Below are positions 19,787-42,200 of a DNA stretch of 64,000 bases, piece after piece. The position numbers and the translations under genes were made by a program. The notes beneath the pieces were generated by a model. It was not told the DNA's origin. It made no database searches and worked only from the letters and a program-made list of their open reading frames with translations. How positions within the stretch are numbered: position 1 is the stretch's first letter; each line of letters opens with the position of its first letter. This DNA comes from a virus: positions 15,542 through 79,541 of IMG/VR virus record IMGVR_UViG_3300031603_000003. One strand, given 5' to 3'.

Positions 19787-20580
19787 TATTGATTCCTATT
19801 ATTCAACTTATCAAGAGCCACGGTTATAGTTCCGAATATGGTTGCAGCGATGATGCCCATGTTAATAAACTTAATCAAATCTGGCATCTTAGCTTTACTC
19901 GCGGGCCATGTAACAATTGTCTCGGGTAGCATATGGTTCATACTGTTCTCAAACACAATTGATTCTTTTCGAATGCTGTCTCCGGTATCGAATATATCAA
20001 CTCCGAGCATGCTAATGTCACCACCATCTACAATAAGCCCACTGGCATCAGTACCTAGGTACAAGCTGTCTTTAGCAAAACTAATTCCAACATCAGGAGT
20101 ACCTACCCTGTCTCTTATTGTTATGTCATTGGAGCTGGTGTCCATATCGGTTGTAGGACGATCCTTTATGAGCCTGGATGGACGTGCTTTGTGATCGAAA
20201 CTCGCCATGGCTTCGTTCACATAACCATTGTCAATATGGAAACGTATGAAATCTTTATCCACATATGACTCTTTCTCTTCGCCGTCAGTAGGCACGGCTA
20301 CTTCTTTACGTCCGCCATCGGTGAGGTACTCTTCTAAGCGTACACGACGATCTACTGGTGCATCAACATCTACTAAAATCTCCGGTACACCTAACACTAC
20401 ATATTCACGAAACTTATCTACCATGTACCCTGGAGCTTTGATTATATACAGGTCACCGTCGGATGTCTTGTCCGATTCCCCACGCATCCGTACGCATAAC
20501 CACAAGATATCTGTGTCTTTACTTACTTGTACGGTACTAGCATTTATAACCCTGGCATTCTTGTATATGTACTTGCTCAT
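19786..20580 (-). CDS. Putative central spike (gpV/gp5-position) protein with C-terminal hydrophobic helix (264 aa)
   Basis: Lies between hub and gp25-like genes. Start reassigned to MSKYIY at 20580 (ATGA overlap, AGGA upstream). Short beta-repeat stretch VGISFAKDSLYLGTDASGLIVDGGDISM. Confidence 0.55.
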   Translation of the reverse strand: MSKYIYKNARVINASTVQVSKDTDILWLCVRMRGESDKTSDGDLYIIKAPGYMVDKFREYVVLGVPEILVDVDAPVDRRVRLEEYLTDGGRKEVAVPTDGEEKESYVDKDFIRFHIDNGYVNEAMASFDHKARPSRLIKDRPTTDMDTSSNDITIRDRVGTPDVGISFAKDSLYLGTDASGLIVDGGDISMLGVDIFDTGDSIRKESIVFENSMNHMLPETIVTWPASKAKMPDLIKFINMGIIAATIFGTITVALDKLNNRNQ

Positions 20581-23500: not shown

Positions 23501-26500
23501 TACGTGTATCACCTGCACGAACTATAACCTCGCCAATATCATTGATCATCTTGCCAAGTACCGTAGTTACGTGGGTTTTATCTTTAAAGCTACGGTTATT
23601 CAATATCTTATCTACCGCTGAGCGTACACCCTCGGAGTTTGGATTTCCCATGTTATTTATTGCTGGGAATAATACTTTTAGTCCGGGCATATCGTTCCCT
23701 AGGGTAACACCTTCTACTAACACCTTACCTCTGTTGAGTACGGTGACATCGTTTTCGACTTCACCTTCTACTTGTGTGGCTTGGTTGAGTAATGCTGCTA
23801 AGAAGAAATACTGCAATAGATGTACAGCTAGAAAGTATCTTAACATTTGTTCCTTCTGGAACTGTAGGTATTCACCTGACCTATCGGCTAATAGTTTAGC
23901 CATGTTCTCGTCTTCTTTCATTTCCTTGAACATATCTAACGTAGATATGTTGACTAACATAGCAGGATTACCAGTGCTGACTCCTTTACGATCAACAGCA
24001 CCATTGCGTAATGCTTCATAAAATGCACTATCTTCATACTTAGCAAGTCCGGAGGTGGCTTTACCTAATTCCGCACGATACATATCTTTAACTACTTCAG
24101 CAGCACCGGCTAAGCTGTCTAAGTCTTCGTTGTTGATTAGGTTACTCATGTTTAATGCGAGTTCTAACCGACTGTGATCATTAAATATCTTGGCATCCAG
24201 CAATGCAGGGGGTATCCTAGTAGCTGCGAAATACCACGCTGGGTGTAATATCTTATGAAAGTCCTGCGGCTGTGGGTCTACTTCTTTGCCATCATCCTCG
24301 TGTACACTAGCCATTAGGTCTTCTGGGAAGCTGAAGTCTGTGTAATTATTACGTACGAGCTTACTATTATTCTCTATCCATTTAGCATAGTAATTAGGTA
24401 AGTACCCGCGCCACCCGGTGAAGCCTTTCTTAGCTAAGTTCTTCATAGCTCTGTTGAAGTCAGCGCGTACGAACAATATACGCATGAACTCTCGACTATG
24501 TTCTTGCAGAGAGTACGCTGCTGCTATGGAAATACCATGTACATTGGAGTCCGTCAAGGAGATGGATGTTGGGATATCACTCTTCTGGAACACATTTGGT
24601 AGCAGTGTACCGAGGAACAGAGACGCTGCTTGATAGACGTACTGCATGTACTGATACGTACTACGTTCTATAAGTTGTGTAAGATTAGTAGCATTAAGCG
24701 TATCACTATCTCCTAGGTCACTAACTACAGCTTTACGCCAGGCATATATTTGGTCTCTGGTGGGGGTAACTATATCATTTAACAACCCGGATGCAAATAT
24801 AGCATTAGCACTTAAGTCTGGGGATACAGCTAGGAGTGTATCAAAGTCTACTGAGTACGCGAGGTCTTCCCTGAAGTACTTATTTATCATAAGTTGGAAG
24901 TCACTCTTCAGGTAATCGCGATCAACAAATATACCCGGTTTAGCTTTAGGCGCTAGGGTACGATTTGGATCTATCTTTAGCTTAGCCATTATGAGCTTCG
25001 CGGTATACTTATCGAATACGAGATTCGTTGGGAAGAAGTCCGGAGCTACCTTCTTCACATATTTAATCGAGGCACCGCCCACTGTACGTAGCTTCTCTTG
25101 CTGGTCGATGGTATTAGGATTGTGAATCATATCCAGTTCTACTGCGTACCATCCAGTTGTTCCTGGTAGGGTCTTAATCACTACGTTACGTACGGTAAAC
25201 TCTGTAGCACCGATAGCCTGTAACATTGGGTCATTGAACTCAACACGATCAGTGCCTAGGCTAATCATCGTAGCGTACGCGGCCTGCATAGCGACACCTG
25301 TTTGTGTTAATCTGATATCATTTAATCTTTCGATGAAATTGAAATCATTAGTATGGAGTGCCATGCTAACATTGAATTGCCCCATACCCATGTGTTGGTA
25401 TGTTGGGGTGTTGTACTGCGTTATATCTATAGGTACTAACTTGTTAGTGTACGAGACACTAACAGATTGAATAACTGTCTTATCTGTAGTTGGAGCCATG
25501 TCCGATGTGGAGCTAGCGAATACATAAGTCTTGGATTTAAGTTCGAGTTTCCCTACTTCACTATCGGCGGTCTTAGTGAACCTGGTTTCTAGTGAGTTTA
25601 TAAGGTTACTTAGTATACCTAGGCTACCGTCGCTGGTATCTGTTGGTAATTCAGCACCTAGCATGATAGACAAATCTTTCATAGTACTTGTCTGCGGGGC
25701 GATAGTATGCGCTAGTGGGTTGTTAATCCAAACTGTTTGAAGGTTATCGAACATGTCGGTGGCTCCCTGTAATTCTCCACGTATGGATGAATCGGGGAAC
25801 ACTTCTTTGGCAGTAGCCTTGTACAGGTTATTAGCTTCGGTTACGAGACGACGAAGCCCTGTGATAGTGCTAGCGGCGGCTTCGAATATGTCCAGTGGGA
25901 TATACTGGATGCCGGGCTTGGCCTCTAACCCTTTACGTAAGTCACTGCTGGGAGAGAATTGCTGAAGGAGTTTTAAGTTATCCAACATAGCGTCAAGGTC
26001 TAAACGTGCGCTCTTGATAAAGTTCAAAACACGCGTGGCTGGGGTATCCAGATTAGTAATCTGGTTGTATATCATTGTAACACCGCCAGCGCCGTCTGGA
26101 TTGTACGTGTCCCACCTTGAGTTCTTGCTGACCATGATAGGGTCTTCAAACTCTAAGAGTTGTGAACGATAGAATCGTATGAACTCCGGAGATTGACCTA
26201 GATCATCAGTAGTGTACAGCTGTACGCCTGCAGGTTCTTTGAGAGTTATAAGTTCTCCAGTCTGTGTAGCGAAGATGCCAGACTTAGCACTTACAGGACT
26301 ATACGCACGAGATCTGTGCAACACATCATAAATCTTATTGTTACTGATCATCTCCTGACGTCGCGGATTGGAGGTAGCCTCGTACCCTCGCATTTCTCCA
26401 TAGGGAAAGAAGTTGAAGAAACGGATCGTAAGGTACAGTTGTATTGAGTCCGGGTAACCGGGCACGGTATGAAACGATATACTATCAATAACTATAGGGA

Positions 26501-27830
26501 TTGGGAAGATAGCAGGTACTACCTCATCTTTGTTAAACTCGGCAGATATAGCTCTATCGATAAGTAGCTTACTGATTATCTTACTCTTGACCTGGGTAAA
26601 GGGTGCACGTTTAGCCATGGCTACTAAAGGACGTAGTTGTTCGTTGATAGCAGTCTTGCCGTTGATGTATAACGTAATGTTTATAGAAGGGCGTTGCGTG
26701 CTAACCGGTACAATAGGGTTACCATCCGTACGCATGCTATCAAACCCATAAGTTTGTCCAGTAGCATTATACCTTATAGCAGTAGGTGGTACGACGAATT
26801 CAAGATCACCTATACGGAATACATCTTCATCGTCTGCTATTTGGCTCTTAACTAAGCCGGGAGACGCGGCGTGCATACGATCTAATTTCTTATTGTACTT
26901 GAAGACGGTAGTTTGACCACGTGATACTTGTGGGGATGGCGAATCAGTAAGATCAGTACCTTCAGGTTCACGCATTATACGGTTTATCGCTTCTGGGTCG
27001 TTAATCTGGTTAAGCGCATTCTTCATGAATGTTCTGCCAGGATTAGGTGAGTCGAAGAAACCAACAGATGCGTTTAGAGCGTCGATGCGCTTTATTACAT
27101 ACCGATAAAATTCATTAACATCAATTACCCAGTCTGACTTATCTTCTGGTTGTATGTCGGTGTACACTGCTTTAGTACCGTCTACGACTTTACCTAAATG
27201 CCCATCAATACCGCGTTGTAATGTGTACCCCATGCCGTGATTGTAAGTAGCAACTTCGTTCAGGTACCACTGTACACCATTACGTCCATCTATAGTAATA
27301 TTCTTCCACTTATTATATATGTCGGTATGCGCATTGTTAAAGTCTTCGACTTCATATTTATGTGGTGTACCTTTTAACTCTTTAAACGTACACAGGACAT
27401 CGAACAGTTCATCGTCCATTCTGGCTGCTAACTCGTGCAGGATATTTCCCAGTATTATACGTCTACTGTCGTACTCACCGTCAATATTCATATTACCGAT
27501 GACACGGTATTCCTTAGCCCATATAGCAGCCACTGACCACAGGAGCCACATTAGCTCGTCCATGTCGGCCGGGAGTGCTGTGTTTGGATTCACGGCAATA
27601 CGCTCATAGGTATCAACTACTAGAGGACCTACTGTTAGGTTAATACCTAAACCTTTTAATGCTGTTTGGAAGTTCTCTGTCTCTCTTTGTGCCATAAGTA
27701 TAGCGTACTGGGGGTTCATCTGGTATCGACCTACTTGTCCGGCTCTATTCTCGTTACTAGTAAGTCTTTTACCGGTCTCAATAAAGGCCGCGGTCTTAAT
27801 TACGTCTTCTGGTCTTATGTATATAGGCAT
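20577..27830 (-). CDS. Giant baseplate hub protein with N-terminal lytic transglycosylase-like domain (2417 aa)
   Basis: FIETG...GQVGRYQM...ATYNHG match SLT motifs. The C-terminal half has gp27/gpD-like hub signatures (RIQPGTTVMVRLGYG; YQGSLVLRGDATIRP...VEEVIHSMSSSGGFITTI). Confidence 0.8.
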   Translation of the reverse strand: MPIYIRPEDVIKTAAFIETGKRLTSNENRAGQVGRYQMNPQYAILMAQRETENFQTALKGLGINLTVGPLVVDTYERIAVNPNTALPADMDELMWLLWSVAAIWAKEYRVIGNMNIDGEYDSRRIILGNILHELAARMDDELFDVLCTFKELKGTPHKYEVEDFNNAHTDIYNKWKNITIDGRNGVQWYLNEVATYNHGMGYTLQRGIDGHLGKVVDGTKAVYTDIQPEDKSDWVIDVNEFYRYVIKRIDALNASVGFFDSPNPGRTFMKNALNQINDPEAINRIMREPEGTDLTDSPSPQVSRGQTTVFKYNKKLDRMHAASPGLVKSQIADDEDVFRIGDLEFVVPPTAIRYNATGQTYGFDSMRTDGNPIVPVSTQRPSINITLYINGKTAINEQLRPLVAMAKRAPFTQVKSKIISKLLIDRAISAEFNKDEVVPAIFPIPIVIDSISFHTVPGYPDSIQLYLTIRFFNFFPYGEMRGYEATSNPRRQEMISNNKIYDVLHRSRAYSPVSAKSGIFATQTGELITLKEPAGVQLYTTDDLGQSPEFIRFYRSQLLEFEDPIMVSKNSRWDTYNPDGAGGVTMIYNQITNLDTPATRVLNFIKSARLDLDAMLDNLKLLQQFSPSSDLRKGLEAKPGIQYIPLDIFEAAASTITGLRRLVTEANNLYKATAKEVFPDSSIRGELQGATDMFDNLQTVWINNPLAHTIAPQTSTMKDLSIMLGAELPTDTSDGSLGILSNLINSLETRFTKTADSEVGKLELKSKTYVFASSTSDMAPTTDKTVIQSVSVSYTNKLVPIDITQYNTPTYQHMGMGQFNVSMALHTNDFNFIERLNDIRLTQTGVAMQAAYATMISLGTDRVEFNDPMLQAIGATEFTVRNVVIKTLPGTTGWYAVELDMIHNPNTIDQQEKLRTVGGASIKYVKKVAPDFFPTNLVFDKYTAKLIMAKLKIDPNRTLAPKAKPGIFVDRDYLKSDFQLMINKYFREDLAYSVDFDTLLAVSPDLSANAIFASGLLNDIVTPTRDQIYAWRKAVVSDLGDSDTLNATNLTQLIERSTYQYMQYVYQAASLFLGTLLPNVFQKSDIPTSISLTDSNVHGISIAAAYSLQEHSREFMRILFVRADFNRAMKNLAKKGFTGWRGYLPNYYAKWIENNSKLVRNNYTDFSFPEDLMASVHEDDGKEVDPQPQDFHKILHPAWYFAATRIPPALLDAKIFNDHSRLELALNMSNLINNEDLDSLAGAAEVVKDMYRAELGKATSGLAKYEDSAFYEALRNGAVDRKGVSTGNPAMLVNISTLDMFKEMKEDENMAKLLADRSGEYLQFQKEQMLRYFLAVHLLQYFFLAALLNQATQVEGEVENDVTVLNRGKVLVEGVTLGNDMPGLKVLFPAINNMGNPNSEGVRSAVDKILNNRSFKDKTHVTTVLGKMINDIGEVIVRAGDTRSIDTALAGFGYTDIDAELLNVSLDKKLASQVHNNWDNHFIQAFPAFKMFLIEEDSTDWGLFDDFYTYDGIQSIDVIDSKHSASSTAIIRLSNVTGKLTSPGISQLFRDTDDPKNLERFRIQPGTTVMVRLGYGPDYRNLPVVMYGAVTEVIPGPILEIKIQSFGVELLSEMSRSITSGSMESHIGEAVLTTLSETSGLKHFGRWSIHHGKSEEFIAASNDLTKHLYTLGRIAGLSGTGVSDVDSGLLDKVKKKVVGGSAASQDVLGLYDGDVGAGTKDFVDSLIDGTNQYAMLLNFGNSLYDNIYVNNKRPQYYGFVNMVPFFNRFDDKDSFYWHINNQTTWDALWEQALYLGDYIVRPLPYNEGAYLFGGTAPRATLYFGPRDGQYKASDDPYHITGKGDEFATAIRQRILQTEEELTNSNQEDWELDPLTGLNNLEQDMQDAARKLGNAALWASKFNPVKSRFDNLFNDYYSPPLKQAAERLSNAGLPHLAQFALKYASKIMEEESFTSKTHPVSVFTQLLCWNMGDIKGNIIPQFYSALDETLSGPVTLTDRFLAGNRARRLVIFTAVKAEWAIALRADMPQFLANIKSNNYQVTGTKSQHLEDLIQLLDDDGQTGSESYQPIVEHHFASSDSHIISNEITVTEDLLSNKVSVYYPTSVKDSGVSAPHEWDKENKVISSISNELDANYIREYVSFQKNCDTSIFYDFTGLNTLGEDFVDATAGWKHAQPQAKMLADQILMNQIKPMYQGSLVLRGDATIRPWHYIHISDAVSQMSGVIEVEEVIHSMSSSGGFITTIKPNLVTSMRNTAAAIDTELMGLNATLNGLTRKVGTAWTVLKVGGELAGAKYAVKTSFKWLVEKGIASELGKRAVSFLTAFTSMFVIVGTTIAAGGIKYKTMEMKQFINAANMQLGNAPIIMSLLQYNGKAYSAGLEGIQYNRNASTIAISDIIDANYWDGIVTQWGLMNGEIGL

Positions 27831-27997
27831 TAGCTCATCTGTGCTAGTTTAATTATGTTAAGTAAATCAACATCGTTGATATATATGTCTGCGTTTACGC
27901 CATAACGCTCAAATAACATTAAACGAATACTGTCAATCTGTTCTTGTACGTCAAGCTCATATGGCACATCAGTTAACTTTATCATTATCGTAATCAT
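27830..27997 (-). CDS. Small hypothetical protein, 55 aa (missing from ORF track)
   Basis: MITIMIKLTDVPYELDVQEQIDSIRLMLFERYGVNADIYINDVDLLNIIKLAQMS*. ATGA overlap with the RNAP stop and TAATG overlap with the hub start; fills the gap exactly. Confidence 0.8.
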   Translation of the reverse strand: MITIMIKLTDVPYELDVQEQIDSIRLMLFERYGVNADIYINDVDLLNIIKLAQMS

Positions 27998-30900
27998 CTT
28001 ACTAAAGAGCCAGCTCTTCGGAGGTAATCTGATGAGCTAATAGCTGTGTGTCTGCGCTTCTTATTATTATATTCGTAATGTGGACGTTCAGGTACACGCA
28101 TACCTTTAACCAATTGTGGTGCATTGTCTGGTGAGTTCTTCAGTTTGTCCATCAACTTATCCTTCAATGTGGCACTCTGCTCTTTTAGGTGCACGCTCTT
28201 GCGATTACGGTACCCTTTGGTAACCTCCGACATATTTGGTGTGTCATACTGTTCGCCGCCTTTTCCGATTGTCTCCCCTACGATCTGGTTCCCAGTGTTG
28301 GGATCGAAGAATAAAGCCAGTCCGGCAACAGTTAATACTTTGCGTCCATGGTTACGTAGGAATGAGTTCTGATCTAAGGCAAAAACTGATTTAGTATATT
28401 GCTTAATCTTCTCTGTAAAGATACGTCTAGAGTTGAATTCCTCTGCCAGGGCACCACCAACGTGCCCTTCCAATTCTAATAGTGTCTGGAATACGCTAGC
28501 ACTACTACGTGCAAGACCCATACGCTTGAGCTCTGGCGCTATCATCTGGGACATCTCAGTACGTAGTACCTGATCTCTGGAGATTTGACTTTCAAGGGAA
28601 CTTACGGTGATACCTTTAGTTTTATTAGCTAGATCATCCGCCGCCCCTACTGCTTGCATTAAATCTCCTAGTTTAGCGGCATATGTATCGTCTCCTCTGC
28701 TGTTAGCATCTGTTTGTAATTGGACAAGTGTACTTCCAAGCTTATGTACAGCTATACTAGCAGTATGCCAGGACTCTAATAGTTTACCGGCTCGTAGTTG
28801 TGCTTTCTCCAGGGTAGCATCATTCATGGATGCTAGATCTTGCCTATTAGCGTGGTACGTTAATGTTAGTTTACGATCTTCACCCATACGTTTAGTAAAG
28901 TAATCTATGGATGCGTCTAGAGATGTTCTATCTTCTCCCCAGGTAACTGTATTAAGATGTCCCATCATCTTGATTAGAGATGTAACAGGGTTGCTACTAG
29001 TCTTTTCTATACCCGTACGTTGCCCTAGTTCAGCTACAAATAGGTTCATTACGTGCATGTTGCTATAACCACCCATCAAATCACTAGGAGAATGCAAGTA
29101 ATCGAGAGCTTCAAGTACTGAGTTAGATGTTATACCTTTGGCGTGTAATCCTACCTCTTCCATCATTCTATTAAACATACCGCTAGCAGCTTCACGCTGT
29201 GGGCCTTCATTTAATAAGCTACCAAGTTGACGCATGACGGAGTTCGGGCCGTACGCGGCGGCATATAGTTTCTTGTGGAACCCACCAATAACTTGCGTGA
29301 ATGACTTCTGTGTCATGTACGCCAGCTGCGTGTCAACCCTGCTATCCATCTCTAGTTGTTTCTTGAAGAAACTAGCAGACAGCGCTTCGGATGGATCGAC
29401 AAACAAGTGTGGATTAGTACCCATAGCGGCTTTATCGAGCTTGTAGAGCTGTCTGGTTCCTCCGGGAGAACTTTCAGTGGCGAAGTTTGCTTCATCGAAT
29501 ATATCGGCTAGGTATGGTGTACCGCCATCTCGTTCAATCTGTATCTTCTGCCAGTCGATCAACATATTGGTATGGTTTTCGTGACTCTGTTGGTACATTG
29601 TACGCTTGATGCCAATCTTACCTTCGCGGTCTCTCCATCCACCTATGTTGATGATAGCGGCAGTATCACCATCCTGATCAGCTCGTAGGAACTTCATCGC
29701 TAGTGGGTCTAGGAACACAGATGAGCGGGTGGAGAATCCTGCACCACCGTCATACACGGCACCGACTTGTTCTGGAAATATGTAAGTACCTCCGGCCAGC
29801 ACCATTCCTTGGATGTGGGATGGGTTACGATCACGTAATTGTTTACCACTGATCTCAGCAGTAAAGAATTGGTAAGCTTCCTGATAACTAAGATCTCCAG
29901 TCTTAACTGCTTCTTTTAGCTGTCTTGCGCCTGCTTTTCCGAATACAAAACTCTCGTTTACACCAAGTCCACGTGCACGTACTACGCCAGTTACTGGGTC
30001 TATCGGGCTACCGCCTCCAGTTATTCTGTTTAGTATAGTAGATAACTGAAGCTCGCTTTGTTTGCTAGCGACAAACTCTTGACCGAGACCCTTCTTTAAC
30101 CAACCGGGAAGCTTAATCTTGGAGTCTTCTAGTACGCCTAGTGATAACTGTTCTTGCATAGATATGAGTGTTGGGAGGATACCCATGCTATTCATGATCT
30201 TACCGTGTGACATGCTTACGGTACTAGCTGTAGATCTGAATTTAGATTGCTCGAATAAGTGACCTAGTATGCCTAAAGATGCACGATCTACTATCTCGGA
30301 GGTGAGTTCACGGCGTCTGTTGTACTCACGCATGAAGTCTTCTTCAGCTGTTTCTTTAATACCAACATGGAAGGCAGTCTGAAAGGCACTAATAGCTTCT
30401 GCACCTTCGAGGAACTTAGAACTAGCACCTGCCATAATAGCTAACCCATCTTTGTCGTGTGGCCTGAGTATACCTGTTAAGGCTGGGAAGATGACTTCAT
30501 CTATAATGTTGGGCCCGCGCTTGTCGGCGTTGCTTTCTATAAATTCACGGAATGCTTTGAATTTAGCCTTGTCCATACTACCTGCGGACTGTAACTCTCC
30601 ATGTATAGCGAGATCTTTGACTGCACCCATGTGTTTTATGGAGAGTGTCATGTTCTCAGTGCCGATACGCTTCTTGATAGCCTTACGGAACGCATCACGC
30701 TCTTCATCGTTGAACTTAGACATGTCGATCTTATCCAACATTTCATCTACACTGTCTAGTTTGAAACCTCTGTACGCTGGATCATTCTTCTCTAGTGCTC
30801 CGAACAGATTATCGCTGTCGAAGAACGCGGCACGTACTTGACTGATACGTGATTCAGCCATACCAGCAAGTTGTATATATTCTCCGGTTTGTGTATCCTG

Positions 30901-33900
30901 AAACTCTTGCCCAAACTGTGCCAGCATGCCGGCTGCTTTCATCTCCGGCGTAGCCCCGGCCCATTCCTGGGTAGTGAAATCAATATCAAATATAGATGCT
31001 TTACGTAGCTTTTCGAGTGACTCCTCTAGAGCCTTGGATCCAACTTTAGTAATCTTCTTCTTTAGTACCCTGTTACTCTCACCCTGCATGTACGCGGAGA
31101 TGAGTTGTACGGTCTTGGCTGCGTCGCGGACTGGTTGTTTACCTTCCCTGTTGACATAATTAAAGCCTAACTTAGGAGCATAGAACCCTGCCAAGTACCC
31201 GAAGTCTTCCATTGATCTTATATCATTGTGGCGGTTGCCGATACTGTCCATTACGATGGTGTTGAACATAGCCAGAGCTTTAGGTTTAAGACTAGGTAAG
31301 CCGTTGGCTTGTTCTGGGCGCATGTACATCATCCAGAAATCAGTGGCATCACTTGTTACGGACATCGACGTTAGAATACGTAGTGCTTGTGAGGTCATGC
31401 TCAGATGACCGTACTGTACGGGAACTATATCAAATAGTGCAGCTGATGTATCATCACCTACCTGGCTTTTCCAACGCTTGAAGTGTCTAGCTTTTAGCTT
31501 ATCGCCGCTGTTAGTAGCTTGCTCTAGTAATGTACCTAATGCTTGTTTCTGTTTAGTAAGACCAGCCGCCCATTGCGATACTACCTTGGCATCATTATTC
31601 CACAGCTTTTTGGCGGACTTGTTAAACTTATCCTTTACGTAACCCCAGGTTACACCGGCTTCCTCGAGCATGTTCTCAAGGACATGTAGGTCCACCCGCT
31701 CAAGTACAGTTGTCTCAATCTTAGCTGGGATCTCTGGTACATATATTATATGATCAACCAGGTTACCGGCAGCATTAGTGGTTTTAATCTTGCGTTTTAC
31801 ATACTTTACCTGTGATGCTACATCAGGTCCTAGTAAGGTGGAGAATGCTTTCTCAAGTGTACGTTTAGTGTGGTCTGGTTCAGAACCGTCAAGTACTAAC
31901 TTGAGTTGTATACGATTAATCTGGTGTATGATATTGGAAGCTATCTCATTACGATTACCACCAAGCTTAATGCCAGATGCAGCTTGGGTGTACAGTGGAT
32001 CTATATTTAGTCCACGACCAAAGCCCATGAGTGCGTTAATAGAAAACTTAGCTGTCTTATCACCGTAGAATGCCTTGGTACCTACACCTCCGGGGACGTA
32101 CTGCGCTAGGTTAACCGTCAGGTACCCAGTATCTGCATCATAATGAAGGGACTGTGGTATACCTGGAATTTGACCATGATACCTAGTGTCCGCGGCTATG
32201 CTTCCTATAACAGCACCATCAGCCTTAGCGCCGAGACTGGAGCGCGTCATTCCGCCGAATACTCTATCCTTATTGCGTACTGCTATGTCACCTCCTGGAG
32301 CCTTACCAGTTTTGATCCAGTTATTAACTAAATCCCAACCCTCTTGTTGACTATTTAGTCCAAGAGTAAAACTTCCATCAAGATGTAAGTGTAATCGTTC
32401 TTGTAGTAAGCCATCAGCTATGACCCTGTTAATGGCATTACCTATTGCTTTGTGCTTACCGATGCCTGACAGTACTTTAACTAACTCTGCTTCAGGTAAA
32501 GCACCTGCAGAGACTGCTAGGCCGGCAGGGGATGCGGAAGATAAGTTAAGTTTAAACTGAGCCTTAACTTGCTTGATACCTTTGTACGAACTAAGGTTTT
32601 GACGTAATTCGTCCGTCACTACGAGCCCTGATTCAAATACAGGTGCGAAGCTCTCAGGCATGAGCGTCATGACTACCATTTGGTGTGTGTGAGCGAGCTT
32701 GTTATCACTATTAATGTTATCAAGTACTCCGTACAGTGAAGAGGCTACACCTTTAGCCATTAAATTGTAGTTAAGCTTTTCACTAGTACCGAGGCGGTCA
32801 CTAATGAACTTATTAAACTTATCAGTATCATCAAATGATCCACTATACTGCGCAGATACATATTGTCTGATAGTAGCACTAGCCTCTGTCTCTAGTACAC
32901 CACCATGTCCATAGATACCAGTCATTGGTCCATTGGGGTTCAAGACACGGGCGGAGAGTACCTGGTACTTTTCACGAGAGAAGTTGTTCAGCAGACCGAA
33001 GGGCATTACACCCTCCAGTGAAAGTAATGTACCGCGAAGGTCGGAGGCTGAATGTCTAGGTTGGGACATCAACGATAGACCTAGGCTATGTGCCGGCGCG
33101 CCGTTGACTCCCCACTTGTCATAGATACCGAAAAGTTCTTGATTCTGTGCAGCAATATCTAGACTACGATGCCACTCGGCGCTTTGTCCACCCTTCTGCA
33201 GGTAGTTGGCTGCTACTTCAGTGTACTCCCGTATTCTACGTTTCTCCCTGGAGCCCATATCATTGTACAGTCTTTTAATACCGAAGTAATTCAGTACAGA
33301 TACCATGGAGTCAAATTGTGCTAAGTGACCAGTAGCCGTACCATCAAATTTGAGATGTAAGTCGTTGGCTTGAATAAGTCCTAGTATACGATTAGCATCC
33401 TTTATACGTCCCTGGTCAAACCCGCGCAATACACCTGCTTTATTCTGGTGTGTTGATGGGTTAGCTATATTCTGCGCGTACTGCAGTATATCTGAGAACT
33501 CATCCGTGGACACATTGTAGATATCTTTGAAGATGTCAGTCTGTGACTCAGCTTTATTCTGTCCCATCTTTAGTACATGATAGGCACTCTGTATATTAAA
33601 ATGAGAAAAGGTTTCACTTCGTGGATCAGTATTAAATAACTTACTAAGTATATTCTTGAACTTGGTCTTAAGCTTTCTAGTTAACCCTAACTCCGAGTTC
33701 AAGGCTCTTTCCATCAACGGGATATCAGCTTGTGTATGTGCTTGTCCTATGAAGATTACAGGGAATAGGTCATCCCCTCTATCAGCAGACATGGCGTTTA
33801 TACCGGTAGACATGTTATCCAACATCTGTATTAACATCTTCGCCGGTGTACTGGTGGTCTCTTCAAGTGCTTTAATTATCTTATTAGCTTCGCCGCGGTC

Positions 33901-36252
33901 GCCTACTTGTTGTAACACCCAGTCCTTGACACGTTGGGTTAACACTTCATCCATACCAAAAGCGTTAGGTTTAGCTAATAGGGCCGTCTTGCCCTTTGGC
34001 ATGAACGTGACTCTGTCCTCAAAGAGGTTGATAGTTGTTTGCCCACCCTGCCATATCTCAGAACTAGGATGTCGAGCTACCTGCTGCAGTCCAGCGGACT
34101 GAGAGGCCATGGAGTGAGAGAACTCCATATCAAATGCAATTCCTATTCCACCTGTATCTAGTAATTCTAAACCACGTTTACCTTCTAACACTTTTACATA
34201 GTCGTTGTATGAGGCTGCGTTTCTACGAAAGTCCATCTCTTGCGACTGTACGGTCAAAGCTGTACGGAAATCAGCTCCAGTAAGTTCAGCCGGTGACAGC
34301 TTAGTTGAGTCCTTACGTGCTAATCTGTTCCATAGTCCCTCCGTACGGTCAGGGTTAGTAAACGTTTCAATGAAATCATTTAATGCTTTTTCCGCTGTAC
34401 GCTCGATAGAATCCATACGGCCGGCTGTATAATCCACGAGACCATCTAGATCTGGATTGAACCCGCTAGCTCTATTCAATACTGTGCGCTGGTACAGTGT
34501 TGAAACCTGTGCTTGTCCGCCAAGAGTAGGAGTCACGACGCCACGTACGTTTATAGGTACTAGTACACTAGCGTTTAACCCACCACTAATGTAGCTTAGT
34601 TTTAAGTGTTGTTGTGTTATTCCTGCGTTATCAAACGTATAACCTTCTACTTTGAATTGCAGTTTCTCTAGCAAATCAGTTAATACTTTTAGCTTCTTCT
34701 GATCTGCGCCGGCACCAAGTACGGCTCTATTCTTGGCGTCAGCCTTAGCTCTTAGTACAACCTGCTTTATATTATCTAGTTGTTTACCAAGACGTTCAGC
34801 TACGACACCTGGATTATGAAACTTATCATATACAGCACCTTGCCCTAAGACCCTGTACATATCTTTGTGCAGTCTCGTGCGCAAACGTTCTAGATGATTG
34901 GGGTTTCCATTAGCTAAGTCTAACCAGTTACGTATATCTCCAGATGATCCTAGAGTGAACGCCTGCGGTTTACCGAACTTTACCTGTGGATTCACTACCT
35001 TGGTGAAGGTATCGACTAGCCTTTCTTTGTTAGCTTGGTTAAGTTTCTGCGCTGTCTTCTTGAGAACCTTCACAACCTGTGAAGACGGAGCCTGCGATGC
35101 TTGCATCTCGGAGAATCTAGTCTCCAGTGCGACCGCGTTTTGCCGGATATCATCCATCGTAACGAACCCAGCTTCTAATGTAGCGATAGGTTGTCGACCA
35201 TACACTTCGGAGTACGCGTTAGCGAAAGCGATTAGCTTACTATACTGTGCCATTTCTCCGGGAGTTTCGGCAGCCTTGTATAGATCTACAGCTAGTAGTT
35301 CAGCTACGCCACGTACGGATGATTGTGTAGTTTTGTTAGTGGACATGCCATCTACGAGTATCTTCCGTGTTTGCATGTACTGTTCTTTACGAAATGCACT
35401 AAGCTTATCGGCTGCCTCAGACTCTACGGTCTCAATTACCTGTCCAGGTAATTTACCAGCATCGATATGTTTCTTAAGTTCCATGACCATGATGGCATTT
35501 TGTAATGCCTCATCACTGGCGGTTCTGAAATTGTATACTACGTTACCGTAGCTCTTATCCTTTAGTACTAAAGCTAAGCCTGCCTTTAACCTAGCGTTAT
35601 ATCTCTTATTTTGTGCAGTATTTGGGGTAAACAACTCATCTTGTATAGCCAAGGTGGTATGTTCGTCCATGACGTGCTCGCCGCCTAGAACTTGTGTTGC
35701 TAGATTATTGGGTAAATCACCAATAATACCCTGTAATTTCATCAACTTAGCAGAGCTTTTAAACAGTATTTCATTAGCATCATTATTAACTAACGGATGC
35801 GCGCTGTTCACTCCGTAAACATTAGCCCAATAGCTGGAGATTGGATTAGCTAGTGTGTGTGCATCGCGTTTACTGATCTGTTCTACGAACTCACCAGCTG
35901 CGTTGCGTTTCTTACCGAACTTTCGTATATTCTTTTCTTGTTCTCGTGCTCGTTTATACCCAGCAATCATCATTGCCGTGTTGGATCCATCTGCCTTAAC
36001 ATACGCGGCGTTAGTCTGGATACCAGCGTTTGCGAAGATTTGATCGGCGGGACGATCTCCTGCTTTTAATACTTCCGGTACATCTATGATACGACTTAAT
36101 ATATCGTGTACGGCTGACTTAAATGATCCAGGTTCCTGGGCCGCCCACGCTTGGTGAATAGCTCTAGAGCCTTTGACTATACCAAGAATAGCTGGGAGCG
36201 CTAACGCCGCCGACAGTAGTACATCTTTAGTCTCTTTTTGCTTATTAGCCAC
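27994..36252 (-). CDS. Single-chain two-barrel (DPBB) DNA-dependent RNA polymerase, probably virion-packaged, with embedded DEDDh exonuclease (2752 aa)
   Basis: Beta'-like LRDRNPSH and VFLDPLAMKFLRADQDGDTAAI; beta-like LLSLEGVMPFGLLNNFSR, MVVMTLMPESFAPVFESGLVV and VGTKAFYGDKTAKF; exonuclease FDMEF / ADIPL / HLAQFD. GTG start preceded by AGGAG. Confidence 0.85.
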   Translation of the reverse strand: MANKQKETKDVLLSAALALPAILGIVKGSRAIHQAWAAQEPGSFKSAVHDILSRIIDVPEVLKAGDRPADQIFANAGIQTNAAYVKADGSNTAMMIAGYKRAREQEKNIRKFGKKRNAAGEFVEQISKRDAHTLANPISSYWANVYGVNSAHPLVNNDANEILFKSSAKLMKLQGIIGDLPNNLATQVLGGEHVMDEHTTLAIQDELFTPNTAQNKRYNARLKAGLALVLKDKSYGNVVYNFRTASDEALQNAIMVMELKKHIDAGKLPGQVIETVESEAADKLSAFRKEQYMQTRKILVDGMSTNKTTQSSVRGVAELLAVDLYKAAETPGEMAQYSKLIAFANAYSEVYGRQPIATLEAGFVTMDDIRQNAVALETRFSEMQASQAPSSQVVKVLKKTAQKLNQANKERLVDTFTKVVNPQVKFGKPQAFTLGSSGDIRNWLDLANGNPNHLERLRTRLHKDMYRVLGQGAVYDKFHNPGVVAERLGKQLDNIKQVVLRAKADAKNRAVLGAGADQKKLKVLTDLLEKLQFKVEGYTFDNAGITQQHLKLSYISGGLNASVLVPINVRGVVTPTLGGQAQVSTLYQRTVLNRASGFNPDLDGLVDYTAGRMDSIERTAEKALNDFIETFTNPDRTEGLWNRLARKDSTKLSPAELTGADFRTALTVQSQEMDFRRNAASYNDYVKVLEGKRGLELLDTGGIGIAFDMEFSHSMASQSAGLQQVARHPSSEIWQGGQTTINLFEDRVTFMPKGKTALLAKPNAFGMDEVLTQRVKDWVLQQVGDRGEANKIIKALEETTSTPAKMLIQMLDNMSTGINAMSADRGDDLFPVIFIGQAHTQADIPLMERALNSELGLTRKLKTKFKNILSKLFNTDPRSETFSHFNIQSAYHVLKMGQNKAESQTDIFKDIYNVSTDEFSDILQYAQNIANPSTHQNKAGVLRGFDQGRIKDANRILGLIQANDLHLKFDGTATGHLAQFDSMVSVLNYFGIKRLYNDMGSREKRRIREYTEVAANYLQKGGQSAEWHRSLDIAAQNQELFGIYDKWGVNGAPAHSLGLSLMSQPRHSASDLRGTLLSLEGVMPFGLLNNFSREKYQVLSARVLNPNGPMTGIYGHGGVLETEASATIRQYVSAQYSGSFDDTDKFNKFISDRLGTSEKLNYNLMAKGVASSLYGVLDNINSDNKLAHTHQMVVMTLMPESFAPVFESGLVVTDELRQNLSSYKGIKQVKAQFKLNLSSASPAGLAVSAGALPEAELVKVLSGIGKHKAIGNAINRVIADGLLQERLHLHLDGSFTLGLNSQQEGWDLVNNWIKTGKAPGGDIAVRNKDRVFGGMTRSSLGAKADGAVIGSIAADTRYHGQIPGIPQSLHYDADTGYLTVNLAQYVPGGVGTKAFYGDKTAKFSINALMGFGRGLNIDPLYTQAASGIKLGGNRNEIASNIIHQINRIQLKLVLDGSEPDHTKRTLEKAFSTLLGPDVASQVKYVKRKIKTTNAAGNLVDHIIYVPEIPAKIETTVLERVDLHVLENMLEEAGVTWGYVKDKFNKSAKKLWNNDAKVVSQWAAGLTKQKQALGTLLEQATNSGDKLKARHFKRWKSQVGDDTSAALFDIVPVQYGHLSMTSQALRILTSMSVTSDATDFWMMYMRPEQANGLPSLKPKALAMFNTIVMDSIGNRHNDIRSMEDFGYLAGFYAPKLGFNYVNREGKQPVRDAAKTVQLISAYMQGESNRVLKKKITKVGSKALEESLEKLRKASIFDIDFTTQEWAGATPEMKAAGMLAQFGQEFQDTQTGEYIQLAGMAESRISQVRAAFFDSDNLFGALEKNDPAYRGFKLDSVDEMLDKIDMSKFNDEERDAFRKAIKKRIGTENMTLSIKHMGAVKDLAIHGELQSAGSMDKAKFKAFREFIESNADKRGPNIIDEVIFPALTGILRPHDKDGLAIMAGASSKFLEGAEAISAFQTAFHVGIKETAEEDFMREYNRRRELTSEIVDRASLGILGHLFEQSKFRSTASTVSMSHGKIMNSMGILPTLISMQEQLSLGVLEDSKIKLPGWLKKGLGQEFVASKQSELQLSTILNRITGGGSPIDPVTGVVRARGLGVNESFVFGKAGARQLKEAVKTGDLSYQEAYQFFTAEISGKQLRDRNPSHIQGMVLAGGTYIFPEQVGAVYDGGAGFSTRSSVFLDPLAMKFLRADQDGDTAAIINIGGWRDREGKIGIKRTMYQQSHENHTNMLIDWQKIQIERDGGTPYLADIFDEANFATESSPGGTRQLYKLDKAAMGTNPHLFVDPSEALSASFFKKQLEMDSRVDTQLAYMTQKSFTQVIGGFHKKLYAAAYGPNSVMRQLGSLLNEGPQREAASGMFNRMMEEVGLHAKGITSNSVLEALDYLHSPSDLMGGYSNMHVMNLFVAELGQRTGIEKTSSNPVTSLIKMMGHLNTVTWGEDRTSLDASIDYFTKRMGEDRKLTLTYHANRQDLASMNDATLEKAQLRAGKLLESWHTASIAVHKLGSTLVQLQTDANSRGDDTYAAKLGDLMQAVGAADDLANKTKGITVSSLESQISRDQVLRTEMSQMIAPELKRMGLARSSASVFQTLLELEGHVGGALAEEFNSRRIFTEKIKQYTKSVFALDQNSFLRNHGRKVLTVAGLALFFDPNTGNQIVGETIGKGGEQYDTPNMSEVTKGYRNRKSVHLKEQSATLKDKLMDKLKNSPDNAPQLVKGMRVPERPHYEYNNKKRRHTAISSSDYLRRAGSLVR

Positions 36253-39200
36253 GTGTTCTCCTTGATATCTCGCGAGCAGAGTCTCTCTGGATTTCTACTT
36301 CTAGCTTGATACCTTCAGCCCCTGCTGATGGTGTGTCCGTAACTTCGACGGTAAATGTCATGCCAGACATAGTTAATTGCTGAGTGATATATCCTTGTAT
36401 CTCTGGTATATCTATATCTACTGAGCTTTGCCCTGAAGAAGGTGCATGTATATCTAATGCCCTGGACTTTAACAGACTTTGTTCAGCGGCTTTAACCTGG
36501 TCACGCCAACCTAACCCAAAGTCATGAGAATCAAGGCCGGCTGATTCCACCGTCTTCATTTCAAAGAAGTCCATGTTAGCGGACGGTTGCATTATTGGAT
36601 CAGTAGCTAATGGGCGTTGATGTGTTTCGAAGTATTGAGTAGCATCGAAGGCACTGTCTCTGCTCTCGTTCCAGGTCTTGGATAGTACGCGCGCCATGCT
36701 GGCATCAACCTTGCGTAAGATCTGTTGTCGTCTTTCCGGATCACGTTCGTTCATGAACGCTGTAAAGAATGGTCTATCCCAGTACGGGATGGCGGAGAAG
36801 GTAACTCCTAGATCTAATTGTGCACGATATGATGTGTCACCGGCGGTATCCTGACCACCCCACGGTGAGTGGTGCCCGTAGTTAGGTGTGCCCTGCATAT
36901 TGTACGCTTGATACGCGTAGCGGTTAGTTTGATTCATCTCTTCCGGGTTCTGGGCGAACGCACCAAAGCCAACAGCAGTCTGGCTCATTTGTCTCAAGTA
37001 CCTACTATCTTTCGTGAGGTCATACATCCGTGAAGCTTTGTCGTACTTAACGACATCGAAGTATTCAGAGTATTCACTGAGTTCTTCGAAGTGGTCAGGT
37101 TTGTATTCTGTACCGGTGATAGTTCTAGCGAGTCCGTGCGCTGTACCGTATGCAGCACCTACGGCTGCTCCAACAGTGGCACCGAATGGTCCACCGACTA
37201 GTGCTCCACCAGCTCCCCAACTCAGAGCTCCCTGTACGGGCCCGGTAGCTGATAGCGCTCCGCGTGTCCATGGCTTGATGAATGATTCAACTGGGTTTCC
37301 CCATCCTTGAAAGCCTTTACCTAATACCACTTCGTTATCGTACATTTCCTCTGGTGAATACACACCGAAAAACTTCGTATGTAACGGAGTACGATAACTC
37401 ATGAGCTTTTCCCAAACAGCACCAACGGCCCGTTCGGTTAATGAATATTCAGCTGCAGCTCTGATGTTCTCATTCAAGTTGTACGAGGTGTATTCAGCAC
37501 TGGGTGCAATCCAATCTGTACCTTGGAATCGTTTGTCATACATTTCATACTTGTTAACTACACCTTTAGCATGTCTCTTTAACATGTCTAATCTATTGAC
37601 CTGGCTATCAGTGAGCATACCGCGTTCTGCTTGTTCTTCGACGATTTGTCCTATTTCACGAAACTCTTTACTGAATGGGGATGTATTAAGTAATACTTCG
37701 AAGCGATCAGTGTAACTATAACCACCGGCAGCTTGACCGTATCCTTCTTCTAGATAACCGGCCGCCATACCGCGCGCTTGGTTAAGCGTGTTGATAGAGT
37801 CGTCCCACATGTCCGCGTTGTATCGGGTGAAAAACGACTTAACCTGTGAAGGATCATCTCGATTGACGTAGATTATCTTACCTGACTGTGCACCCATGAT
37901 GTGCATATAAGCATTCAACTGCACAACATTTGCTCGTTTTGGTGCACGGAGTTTACTAAAACCTGCGGCGCTGATAGATTTGATTTCACCAGGTGAGCCG
38001 ACTTTGTCCACTGTAGGAAAAACTAAATCAACATAGGATGATAATCTGTTCTCTGGGTCAGTGATTAATGCTTCTGTCTTGATTGCGCGGTTCTCTGCTT
38101 TCAATGCGGTCTGCACCATACGATGAATAGCAGTACCACCCTCCATAATCTCAATGGCATCCTCATCGAATTGGTTTAATCCTAAGAACCCCATAGCCTG
38201 ATCAAATGCGCTGGAACCTAATCTCGAGATACCGGACGGGAAATCAATGGTTGTTTCGTGTGTAGCTTCGTAGCCAGATCCTGGAAGAATATATTCCCCT
38301 AAAGGACGTTTGGTATTGTGTGTACAAACACAGCCCACACAGAAACTATCATCGGTATCTACTTCGAATCCGTATACGAGACCATCGTAACGTTCTCTCT
38401 TGATCCATTCGATACCTAGACTCATATATTGTTTGTTACCGATTACGCGCAATATAGTGGAAGGTAATTCATTACCTGTAATCTGTCCTCTATCGTATAC
38501 ACGTTCGCCTGTTAATATATGGTGTAACGTAACTGCTGATTTACCATATACTTGCACAGTGTTGCCTTCGAGAACTCCATGAATATGAAGTTGTGCTAAG
38601 TGACTCCAGATCTGATATGCTAAGTTTCGTGTAGGCATTTCAAACGTAAGTTCCATGCCTCTCATGTTAGTAGTCAGAAACTGTCTAGTGAACTGCAGTA
38701 ATGCAGGAGTACCCACAGCGTACAATTCATCTGGTATACCGTACGTCTGCATCTGTTCTAGTAACTCAGCTACAGCGCCGGAGCGGAAGCTATTATCTCT
38801 GTTTACTGATACTCCAAAGTATGTATCTACTAGGTGTACAATCTCTCCATGATCTATCGGGCAGTTGATTAACTTTATATGTTCATCTTCATACTTACCG
38901 TACGCCAGTATGATACCTAGTGTAAACGCATACCCACCTGTGACTACACCAGAACGTCTAGTAGACATTTCTGTGTGCACAGCTGGCGCTGTTGTACGTA
39001 AGTCACGCAGTGGGTATCTTACTCTATGTTTCTTGGTAAGATTCTCCGCTTTAACATAATGTCCATTGTCACTTACTAGGAATGGATGTTCACTAGTAAC
39101 ACGGATTAATGTATCAGTATGTTTTAACTTAATAACATATACGCGTTCCTTGACTGGTCTAGGTAGAATAGCGGATACCGGAACGTAACGACCACGTGTG

Positions 39201-42200
39201 GTACGTACTAGATCTCCCTCCTCTATTTCGTCCGCGCGCTTGAGGCCGCCGAGTACTTCAATTTCAGTGTCATCGGTAACACAATAAGGGTCACCAGTAC
39301 GGAATTCCTCAGGTAACCATGTTGGCATCTGATTAGGTATAGGGTTAGCCTGGTTGAAAGATGTACGTGGTCTAGGATAGAGTCTACGAATACCTTCATT
39401 AAGAAATAGTAAATCTCCAAGGTTAGCGTCCCATAATTTACGGGCCGTGGAGTCTATGGCGCTAGAGCTGGTTAAATATGTTTCATCTACAAATGGCTCG
39501 TCACCGCCCCAGAATGCTTGAGAGCTTAGGAACCCAGTTAACCCTGGTGCCTCGATTAAACCACGGTACACTGATTCAGATATAATAGCACGTGGGCTAG
39601 TAGCTCTGGCAATATATTCATCAGCTACTACTCCCATACCTGGTATAATTCGCGGGGCATCAGTGTCGAATCCCCCAAGTACACCTTTGTACTGTGAGAA
39701 CCCTGCTAACGCTTTACCCTCATGTGCACCTTTGCCTTTACCTGTGACGCCGGCGCCAAGTTCGGAGCGGGCATCCTCTAGGTGCATTAATGAGTTTGTG
39801 CCCATTGGATGTAGGAAGTTATACAATCTACCTGCAGTGGCTCCTAATATAGGACCAACCAGTGGTACTTCACTGAACGGTACATCAGGTTCCATATACG
39901 GTCTATCGAAATAATGTTTACGTGTTAGGTACTGTGGATCAATCAGATCGCCAATTGAGAAATCAATTATACTTCTGTCTTTGAATATGAACTCTTCCCA
40001 TGGTGAACCGTACTGTACCGGTGATGATGATACTTGTGCTTTCATACGGGCATACCAGTTTGGAAGAACGGCCATGGTGCGTCCACCTTCTATGGGCGTA
40101 CTTCCCAAAGTCCAACCGGCACCCTTACGTACGGGAACTAATTCTTTACCTGAATAGATATCACGTAATTCATCGTATGACTTAGTCATATCCGTGACGA
40201 ATGGAGCTGCTAGCGGAATGATAGATAGAAATCCGAGAGGACCTTCAGCCATTGTGGGTTGCAACCACCGGTTAATTACAGCTCCTGCTAACGCACCGGG
40301 TGCGCCTCCAATGGCGAATCCTATAGCTGCGCCTGGTAAGGTGGATGTAGACTTAGGCATCAACCCTTCTAAGTACTTGGCACCCGCTGTTACACCTGTA
40401 ATGTCATAAACTTTTGCAGCTAACAATCTCAAGCGTACGGCTTGATCGGCGACGCCTACGGTAATACCCTCATCCAGGGCAGTACCTTCGAACACTGGTA
40501 ATGTATCAGTAACAGTGTCAGCAAAGTCGTACGTGAGTTCTATTCCAGCCATTAACGCAGCACGGCGACCCATCAAACCAAGCCAAGAGCTGTGACCTTT
40601 GTCGCCTCTTTGTGGTAATATATCTTTATATTTACCACGGTCCCACCCAAGTCCAACCCAGTCCAGGACTGTACCGAATGTTTCATAAGTGTATGTGGAT
40701 CCAAACTTAAACCAACCACCTATGGAGTTGTCCACTGCTACGAACTGTGTCTCGGATGTGAGTTTCTTAATCTCCGATAGCTGGGCTGCACGACCCACGT
40801 GCTGATCATTGAACTGTTTAAGTGGATGGATTTGTTTTAGATAGGCAGTCGCTTCGTCGCTGTGTTGTGCTTCTTGGACTATTTCGATTAGCTTGTTTAC
40901 TGTAGGACGGTACTCAGACTGTGCCTCGGTATTGGTCTTCATACCCATTAACGGTCCAAGGTCCTCTGCCTGCAGAAGTTTCTTGTACGTTTTGGAATGT
41001 TTAACCATTTGAACTAGGCTTAGTTCTTTATCACTAAAGCGTGAACCGGTTCTGGCTTTAACTGCAGCTATAGCTCTATCTACAGCTGTAGACCCATCAG
41101 GAGTAGAGAAAGAGAGCTCGAAGTTAGTACTTACATCTGCTATGTACCTCAACATCTTTTGATGTGGACTCTCGCCTCTACCAGACCCTTGAAGGAAACT
41201 TTCAGGACTATCTAATAAATGTTCTTTGATGTATGCACTATTGGATACACTAATACTAGCCTTGCTGACGGGGCTATCACCAGTCTGGGCCATTAAATAC
41301 TTTACTACCTTACGAGACTTTACTACATCATCTTGTATCTCAGCGAGGAAATCTTCCGTAGAGAGTTTAGTACGGTTACCGCGTATAGCGCTGCGTATGT
41401 CTACGTTTGGTATGTTATCTAATAGTAATGATCCATGTCCGGTAGTTAACAGTGTTGAATATATAGAATCACTACCAAGGAATACCTTGTCGTACGCTTC
41501 TTTCTCAATACCAGCGAACATAGTACCAGCACCTGCTAACTCAACCATTAGTTGCTTGCCCATGAGCGGTGATATCTTAGCCTTACTATCGAATTTTGCT
41601 ATGTTACTCTTTATCTTATCTAGCATGTAGTGGGGCTTAGTAGGATCATTTGGCATTAGTGCGGAAGATACCATCTCGAAGATAGAAGCGTTAGCACCTT
41701 GGCTAGCTCCGAGGTCGAACTTCTGATGCAACCATTGTCGGAAAGGACTTGTTTTGTCCATTCTGTCTGGATCTCTTGGTGGAAGGAACCCTGCAGATTG
41801 GTAAACTATCTTTCCACCCTTCTTTGACAGTGCAGATGCGAAAGGCCGTATGTTGTTAGCGAGCTCAACGGTATTCTGCATAGCTAGATCTGGACCAAAC
41901 AGTGTGTAAGAACGCTTACCTGGAGTTCGAATTAGTACGCCAGGTAGGTTACCTTTACCTCCAGCTTGTCCACTAAACTTAAATGCTTGGCGTGGGCTGT
42001 CCGCGTTCATCAAGTACGCACCAGACTTTAAGCCCTCGTCCGTTACGTTTGCACCAGTCATACCAGATATGGGTAATGTATTATGTATAGGTATGAACAT
42101 TGGTAGATCTTGACCTAGCAATCCGCGTATTGGGTATAATGTATCAAGAGCAGGACCTAGGCGTGTCGTCTTACCTAGACTACTTATAGCTTTATCTGCT

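Follow-up and report, generated by a model that had tools for sequence, protein, structure and literature searches.

A predicted DEDDh exonuclease shares a giant phage tail-region protein with a probable two-barrel RNA polymerase

Two virion-borne polymerases are among the closest described counterparts of the protein considered here. In Thermus phage P23-45, gp96 is a two-barrel RNA polymerase of the virion that carries a DxDGD motif, is fused to the tape measure, and presumably travels through the tail to transcribe pre-early genes (PMC10770324). In the crAss-like phage phi14:2, gp66 (PDB 6VR4) is efficient on single-stranded or denatured DNA and not on duplex DNA (bioRxiv 10.1101/2020.03.07.982082). 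Here we describe a gene of an uncultured large phage, found in a 64,000-nucleotide stretch of viral DNA (the window; positions 15,542 to 79,541 of IMG/VR record IMGVR_UViG_3300031603_000003, a 79.5-kb virus record that is 42% complete according to CheckV). The gene occupies 27994..36252 on the minus strand, begins with a GTG start, and specifies a protein of 2752 residues in which a predicted DEDDh exonuclease precedes what is probably a much diverged two-barrel RNA polymerase. The original prediction, made from the sequence alone, had proposed a complete DEDDh 3'-5' exonuclease embedded in an RNA polymerase and knew of no described example. Our full-text literature search, the coverage of which was incomplete, likewise found no two-barrel RNA polymerase described as linked to an exonuclease, although it did return virion polymerases of the tail-fused and head-carried types (PMC10770324; bioRxiv 10.1101/2020.03.07.982082) and injected proteins of the polyvalent kind (PMC5512222).

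The resemblance to either polymerase is partial. Like gp96, the protein is a DxDGD-bearing giant encoded in the tape-measure region of the tail genes and is otherwise unrecognizable by sequence. The text on gp96 mentions neither a nuclease nor an exonuclease (PMC10770324), unlike the protein described here, and P23-45 has a long non-contractile tail, whereas the present phage has a tail sheath gene. Searches of the PDB sequences, which should include gp96, with phmmer and with the family profile matched no chain, although gp96 itself was not aligned. What the protein would share with gp66 is the character of a single-chain, virion-carried giant polymerase bearing a DxDxD motif. The paper on gp66 mentions no exonuclease, and the motif reads DFDID in gp66 but DQDGD here. 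Furthermore, gp66 is head cargo of a short-tailed phage, whereas the present gene lies in a tail module. We know of no cell-type (two-barrel) RNA polymerase that carries a separate exonuclease.

The three catalytic motifs, predicted at D708, E710, D843, H976, and D981 with HxxxxD spacing, were present at exactly these residues in the translated open reading frame. Exo I (GIAFDMEF, residues 704–711) is encoded at 34120..34143 of the minus strand, with D708 at 34129-34131 and E710 at 34123-34125. Exo II (IFIGQAHTQADIPLM, residues 833–847) lies at 33712..33756, with D843 at 33724-33726, and Exo III (GHLAQFD, residues 975–981) at 33310..33330, with H976 at 33325-33327 and D981 at 33310-33312 in an H-x4-D arrangement; both are likewise on the minus strand. 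On its own the motif is weak evidence that does not go beyond chance, because 43 of 300 shuffled versions of the protein (14%) also satisfy a loose DEDDh regular expression.

Conservation was examined in homologs collected by an exhaustive HMMER search, in which residues 600–1100 were used as the query against 1.84 billion representatives. Nine giant homologs of 1949–2793 residues were found, with 23–29% identity across the matched stretch. Two family members were placed on IMG/VR contigs, one of which (IMGVR_UViG_3300031603_000001) is a 198-kb genome rated complete by CheckV; one contig locus encodes a new member, 55% identical to homolog P0004, and the other encodes essentially homolog P0009. 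Conservation was counted over 11 distinct homologs (10–12 per individual alignment, at 17–30% identity), and D708, E710, D843, H976, and D981 were invariant in every alignment made. Residues 697–1000 have a mean pairwise identity of 22% and contain only six invariant positions, five of which are the catalytic set. The chance that five positions named beforehand would all be invariant is approximately 2e-8 to 3e-10. The spacing from His to Asp is H-x4-D in seven of the 11 distinct members, including this protein, and H-x5-D in the other four. The exonuclease domain, with its catalytic set unaltered, was present in every family member found.

An AlphaFold2 model of residues 600–1100, built on a 10-sequence alignment, gave predicted local distance difference test (pLDDT) values of 70–90 across approximately residues 669–1029. 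Its elements follow the order b1-b2-b3-aA-b4-aB-b5-aC, which is that of a DnaQ-like, RNase H-like alpha/beta fold. In the model, D708 and E710 are placed on the first strand (b1), D843 at the N-terminus of the helix that follows the fourth strand, and H976 and D981 at the start of the last long helix. When the model was compared with 48,161 PDB representatives by VIA-align, the best 50 matches were all DEDD exonucleases, so the RNase H-like DnaQ fold expected for residues ~690–1000 was obtained. The highest-scoring match was 3'hExo (Z 14.7; 192 residues aligned; root mean square deviation [rmsd] 3.1), closely followed by the epsilon subunit of DNA polymerase III (Z 14.6; 173/174 residues; rmsd 3.0), ERI2 (Z 14.5), and RNase T (Z 13.8); SARS-CoV-2 ExoN scored Z 8.9. 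Other matches included TREX1, Cap18, ExoX, Cas2-DEDDh, oligoribonuclease, and the exonuclease domains of B-family polymerases. Foldseek searches of the PDB and BFVD gave only DEDD exonucleases and polymerase exonuclease domains, with weak E-values; in BFVD these were DNA-polymerase exonuclease domains and free exonucleases, and no comparable giant protein was found. The alignment with epsilon pairs model positions 104–395 with epsilon residues 7–180 (VIA end points). If its end segments are gapless, counting from the alignment ends would put D708, E710, H976, and D981 in register with epsilon D12, E14, H162, and D167 (residue identities taken from E. coli dnaQ). The modeled domain, residues ~697–1000 (33253..34164, minus strand), is about 120 residues longer than epsilon as a result of two helical insertions.

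The domain shares its fold, and the order of strands and helices, with E. coli epsilon (DnaQ, 1J53), 3'hExo/ERI1 (1W0H), ERI2, and RNase T (3NGY), all at Z 13.8–14.7. As in DEDDh exonucleases generally, the five catalytic residues fall on the same elements: D-x-E on b1, an Asp at the helix after b4, and H-x4-D before or in the last helix. Known enzymes of this type are small subunits or free enzymes, whereas the domain described here is part of a 2752-residue protein encoded in a tail slot. Identity in the structural alignments is 9–14%, and the domain gave no Pfam or hhalign signal. The Pfam family RNase_T (PF00929) did not match the domain alone or any of 10 family members, even at E ≤ 10, and a six-frame search of three genomes with PF00929 found nothing at the exonuclease/polymerase locus. 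Alignment of the exonuclease sub-alignment with E. coli DnaQ by hhalign was insignificant in both global and local mode. No match was found by tblastn in 50,697 phage records with either the domain or the whole protein, and pattern scans gave no hits, whether the single protein was run against viral contigs or the family alignment against metagenome contigs. A word-index protein search with the domain and the family alignment was also empty, but it missed known homologs too and is silent on rarity.

Conservation and predicted fold, rather than the motif, thus decide the DEDDh identity. On the evidence of alignments and model, the domain is confirmed as real, complete, and under selection, in support of the original prediction of a complete 3'-5' exonuclease. 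By its modeled structure it belongs to the DEDDh superfamily, in the h subtype (His976 rather than Tyr), and to no curated sequence family. We considered whether it could be the exonuclease of a decayed family A or B DNA polymerase and rejected this origin: those exonucleases are of the DEDDy type, in contrast to the invariant His976 of this family, and there was no sign of a polymerase palm.

The exonuclease had been described as embedded in the polymerase. The two do belong to the same polypeptide, but the exonuclease precedes the polymerase-like part, on its N-terminal side, instead of interrupting it. A conserved feature of the C-terminal part is DQDGD (residues 2192–2196; D2192, D2194, and D2196; 29665..29679, minus strand), a candidate Mg-binding loop of a beta'-like barrel. 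All members whose sequences extend this far retain the three Asp residues of DxDGD. About 50 residues upstream lies an R/K-x-P motif, here R2142-x-P2144 (29821..29829, minus strand), which is a candidate counterpart of beta' NRxPxLH and is found as R/K-x-P in 9 of 10 full-length members. When the family segment 2100–2260 was aligned by hhalign with all 1407 residues of E. coli beta', it landed on residues 419–512 with P=0.005, compared with P values of 0.26–0.54 in four control comparisons, although the match probability was only 6.8%. The alignment pairs R-x-P with beta' R425-A-P427 (NRAPT), and LDPLxxxxxxADQDGD with the beta' catalytic loop LHPLVCAAYNADFDGD at identical spacing.

Structural comparison of the core points in the same direction. 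In a low-confidence model of residues 1070–2265 (1196 residues), the best VIA matches fell on residues 1723–2011 (30220..31086, minus strand) and were N-terminal clamps of RNA polymerase largest subunits (plastid, phage AR9, archaeal, Pol I, Pol II, mycobacterial, and vaccinia). Their Z scores of 4.1–5.6 are below the level that excludes chance, so the likeness to the beta'/Rpb1 clamp is weak. This clamp-like region lies just upstream of the catalytic loop, as it does in beta'. A candidate beta-like barrel motif was noted at 32047..32076 (minus strand), with K1393 invariant and K1402 near-invariant. Among named clusters, the nearest by protein-language-model features was the phage RNA-dependent RNA polymerase family PF05183 (score 0.84), which we take as a lead only. 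The invariant DxDGD, the hhalign result, and the clamp matches suggest that the C-terminal part is probably a diverged single-chain two-barrel RNA polymerase, as had been claimed for the protein as a whole.

Other parts of the protein are also conserved. The block PFGxLNNxxRxKYQ (residues 1084–1097; 32962..33003, minus strand), located just past the exonuclease, is the most conserved in the family (P1084, G1086, N1090, R1093, and Q1097 are invariant) and matches nothing known; it is in the segment following the exonuclease that invariant positions are densest. A Kyte-Doolittle scan identified an N-terminal hydrophobic helix at residues 8–26 (36175..36231, minus strand), in and beside which S14, P20, G24, and K27 are invariant. 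The GTG start is backed by the N-termini of homologs, whose M-A-D/N-K start aligns with it, and the gene shares 8 nucleotides (36245-36252) with the end of the giant gene upstream, which suggests translational coupling. Near the C-terminus, a Gly-rich block, DPNxGxxxxGETxGRGGExYDxP (residues ~2651–2672; ~28237-28302, minus strand), is common to all full-length members and follows a mildly hydrophobic segment; it may serve as a membrane element or as an anchor in the tail interior.

Nearly all long open reading frames of the window are on the minus strand. The recognized markers are a major capsid protein, a tail sheath (47941-50808), tail fibers, and a baseplate wedge subunit (18226-19356). 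Three giant genes of 2471, 2752, and 2417 codons are placed between sheath and baseplate, and the exonuclease/polymerase gene is the middle one. The upstream giant (36245-43660, minus strand; 2471 residues) contains a Cas4/RecB-like nuclease match (residues 1822–1962, ~37775-38197; phrog_1706, E 1.8e-13) and a sub-threshold Pfam match to Hint/intein-splicing domains (residues 1495–1782, ~38315-39178; 23.7 versus 35.8 bits). It also shows a weak tape-measure match and a hydrophobic Gly-zipper segment (residues 1111–1129), and appears to serve here as a separate tape-measure-like protein. The downstream giant (20577-27830, minus strand; 2417 residues) has two hydrophobic segments and an endolysin-like region (best stretch residues 2057–2258, ~21057-21662; phrog_20474, E 9e-50); these features suggest a hub or needle protein that degrades the cell wall. 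The sheath gene is immediately followed by a pair of paralogous genes for proteins of ~200 residues (47202-47831 and 46579-47133, minus strand). Both match the first third of PHROG 9206 ("major head protein"; E 1e-39 and 2e-17), but by position they resemble tail tube proteins, and the PHROG label may mislead.

The gene order (a small gene, a giant of ~2500 residues, the exonuclease/polymerase giant, and a further large gene) is the same in two related contigs (loci L002 and L003). With sheath and tube genes on one side and baseplate genes on the other, the middle giant occupies the tape-measure/hub slot of contractile-tailed phages, and this position makes delivery through the tail probable. 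The complete 198-kb relative, G001, encodes a sigma-70 region-2 protein (L009, G001:C1:94704-94847; E 6.5e-6), and six-frame searches of this genome found no canonical multisubunit RNA polymerase. A sigma-factor gene in such a setting is consistent with an injected polymerase that later gives way to the host enzyme. G001 also contains a separate 213-residue open reading frame with a weak RNase_T match (L008, G001:C1:105018-105428; E 0.004). Six-frame searches of three phage records with PF05183 and PF00623 found nothing; a search of the same records with PF00940 (T7-like) was also empty, but its control was silent too and the result is uninformative. The tail-slot position, the conserved hydrophobic N-terminal helix, the Gly-rich C-terminal block, and the sigma gene in G001 all fit an injected polymerase for the first genes.

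We propose the following explanation, for which we see somewhat less than an even chance of being correct as a whole. The giant protein would reside in the tail interior and would probably be ejected into the host ahead of the DNA. Residues ~697–1000 are predicted to be an active, metal-dependent DEDDh 3'-5' exonuclease, and the C-terminal two thirds would be a single-chain RNA polymerase of the two-barrel type, very diverged, with which early transcription begins. That the two modules always occur together in the family suggests a joint function. As to how they might do so, we tentatively prefer a mechanism in which the exonuclease reaches the end of the linear genome that enters first and degrades the strand with its 3' terminus there; this resection would expose single-stranded DNA as the template for the injected polymerase. 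The idea builds on the template preference of gp66, which works well on single-stranded or denatured DNA and poorly on duplex DNA. We also prefer it because of the expected place of the protein, immediately in front of the incoming DNA end, because single-stranded DNA is what a 3'-5' exonuclease produces from a duplex end, and because a second nuclease sits in the neighboring giant. This last protein, with its Cas4/RecB-like domain, gives the impression that DNA-end enzymes travel together.

Two points weigh against template preparation. After 3'-5' resection, the surviving strand is readable only towards the genome end, which limits transcription. In addition, DNases and RNases are structural neighbors of the domain at equal Z, so the fold does not discriminate between substrates. 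The second point bears on the closest rival, transcript proofreading or 3'-end trimming, in which the exonuclease would remove misincorporated or backtracked 3' nucleotides of the nascent RNA or trim transcripts, a role comparable to that of epsilon, the N-terminal exonuclease domains of family A and B DNA polymerases, and nsp14 ExoN for their own polymerases. We regard this role as doubtful in itself, yet nearly as likely as template preparation. The exonuclease lies N-terminal to the polymerase, which is the order found in proofreading DNA polymerases, and the exonuclease domains of those enzymes match it structurally. RNA-specific enzymes (3'hExo, RNase T, and SARS-CoV-2 ExoN) are among the best fold matches, and the exonuclease is conserved as much as the polymerase-like parts are, in every member. 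Coronavirus nsp14 ExoN offers a functional analogy only: it is a DEDDh-type exonuclease dedicated to an RNA-synthesizing polymerase, but it is a separate protein, and its partner nsp12 is an unrelated right-hand RNA-dependent polymerase. The gain from such an activity is difficult to see, however. Two-barrel RNA polymerases already hydrolyze backtracked RNA at their own active site, and an enzyme that makes a handful of early transcripts would benefit little from extra fidelity.

Both of these mechanisms presuppose an RNA polymerase. The DxDGD and the other motifs could instead belong to a different metal-dependent enzyme, or to a two-barrel enzyme that synthesizes DNA and is served by the exonuclease. 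We consider this unlikely, but several observations count against our assignment and in favor of this one, since neither significant homology nor a confident fold links the C-terminal part to RNA polymerases. The core model is poor, with a mean pLDDT of 55 and values under 50 in the part that contains the catalytic loop, and Foldseek found no match with it. The beta-like barrel is represented by K1393 and K1402 alone, in a strand-rich stretch of that low-confidence model, and hhalign produced no alignment between the beta-like segment and E. coli beta. The family profile gave nothing significant against gp66 of phi14:2, and Pfam and PHROGs, applied to the protein, to the domain alone, and to all 10 members, recognized neither the exonuclease nor the polymerase. 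The low hhalign probability and VIA Z scores under 6, described above, are also in keeping with such an alternative. A precedent for a two-barrel DNA polymerase with an exonuclease partner exists in archaeal PolD (PMC7281927), in which DP2, the polymerase, is paired with a 3'-5' exonuclease, DP1 (PMC7281927, PMC10770324). In contrast to the covalently joined exonuclease described here, DP1 is a separate subunit, and PolD makes DNA. DP1 is moreover an Mre11-like phosphodiesterase and not a DEDD enzyme. What argues against a different enzyme is the specificity of the in-register alignment with the beta' loop (R-x-P and L-x-P-L-x6-A-D-x-D-G-D) relative to controls, together with the recurrence of largest-subunit clamps just upstream of that loop, in the correct order. 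We therefore retain the RNA polymerase as the probable identity of the C-terminal part.

The exonuclease might, alternatively, be unconnected with the polymerase and act as an independent injected effector, a polyvalent-protein module that attacks host DNA or RNA or the nucleotide second messengers of host defense. Injected multi-domain polyvalent proteins with unrelated enzymes are common in phages (PMC5512222). The structural matches include oligoribonuclease, T4 DexA, and Cap18, which is associated with the cyclic oligonucleotide-based antiphage signaling system (CBASS), and the neighboring giants contain nuclease and lysozyme-like domains. By language-model features, the nearest clusters are LPD domains of polyvalent proteins (score 0.80–0.82), again as a lead only. 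The accessory effectors of polyvalent proteins, however, usually differ among relatives, whereas this exonuclease adjoins the most conserved block of the protein and is never lost in the family, which makes an unlinked effector improbable. A chance motif or a decayed, inactive domain is very improbable: a loose DEDDh pattern does occur in 14% of shuffled sequences and no hidden Markov model detects the domain, but five residues are invariant at ~22% mean identity and the predicted DnaQ fold reaches Z 14.7.

A two-barrel polymerase with a covalently attached DEDDh exonuclease that acts on the polymerase's own product is somewhat unlikely in our estimate, but its consequences would be considerable. 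If true, the protein would represent one of two things, a cell-type RNA polymerase that is the first to have a separate nuclease for proofreading, or a two-barrel enzyme other than archaeal PolD that synthesizes DNA, and either way the design that combines a polymerase with an editing exonuclease would have arisen independently in the two-barrel lineage. In the former case it would reveal RNA proofreading of a kind that, to our knowledge, is otherwise known only from coronaviruses. More generally, the case shows that tail-interior proteins of large phages contain sizeable, conserved enzyme domains that go undetected by every standard annotation library. The family described here invariably joins a DnaQ-type exonuclease to a probable two-barrel polymerase, in a protein placed to enter with the DNA end, and so bears on how injected polymerases that prefer single-stranded templates start on a duplex genome.

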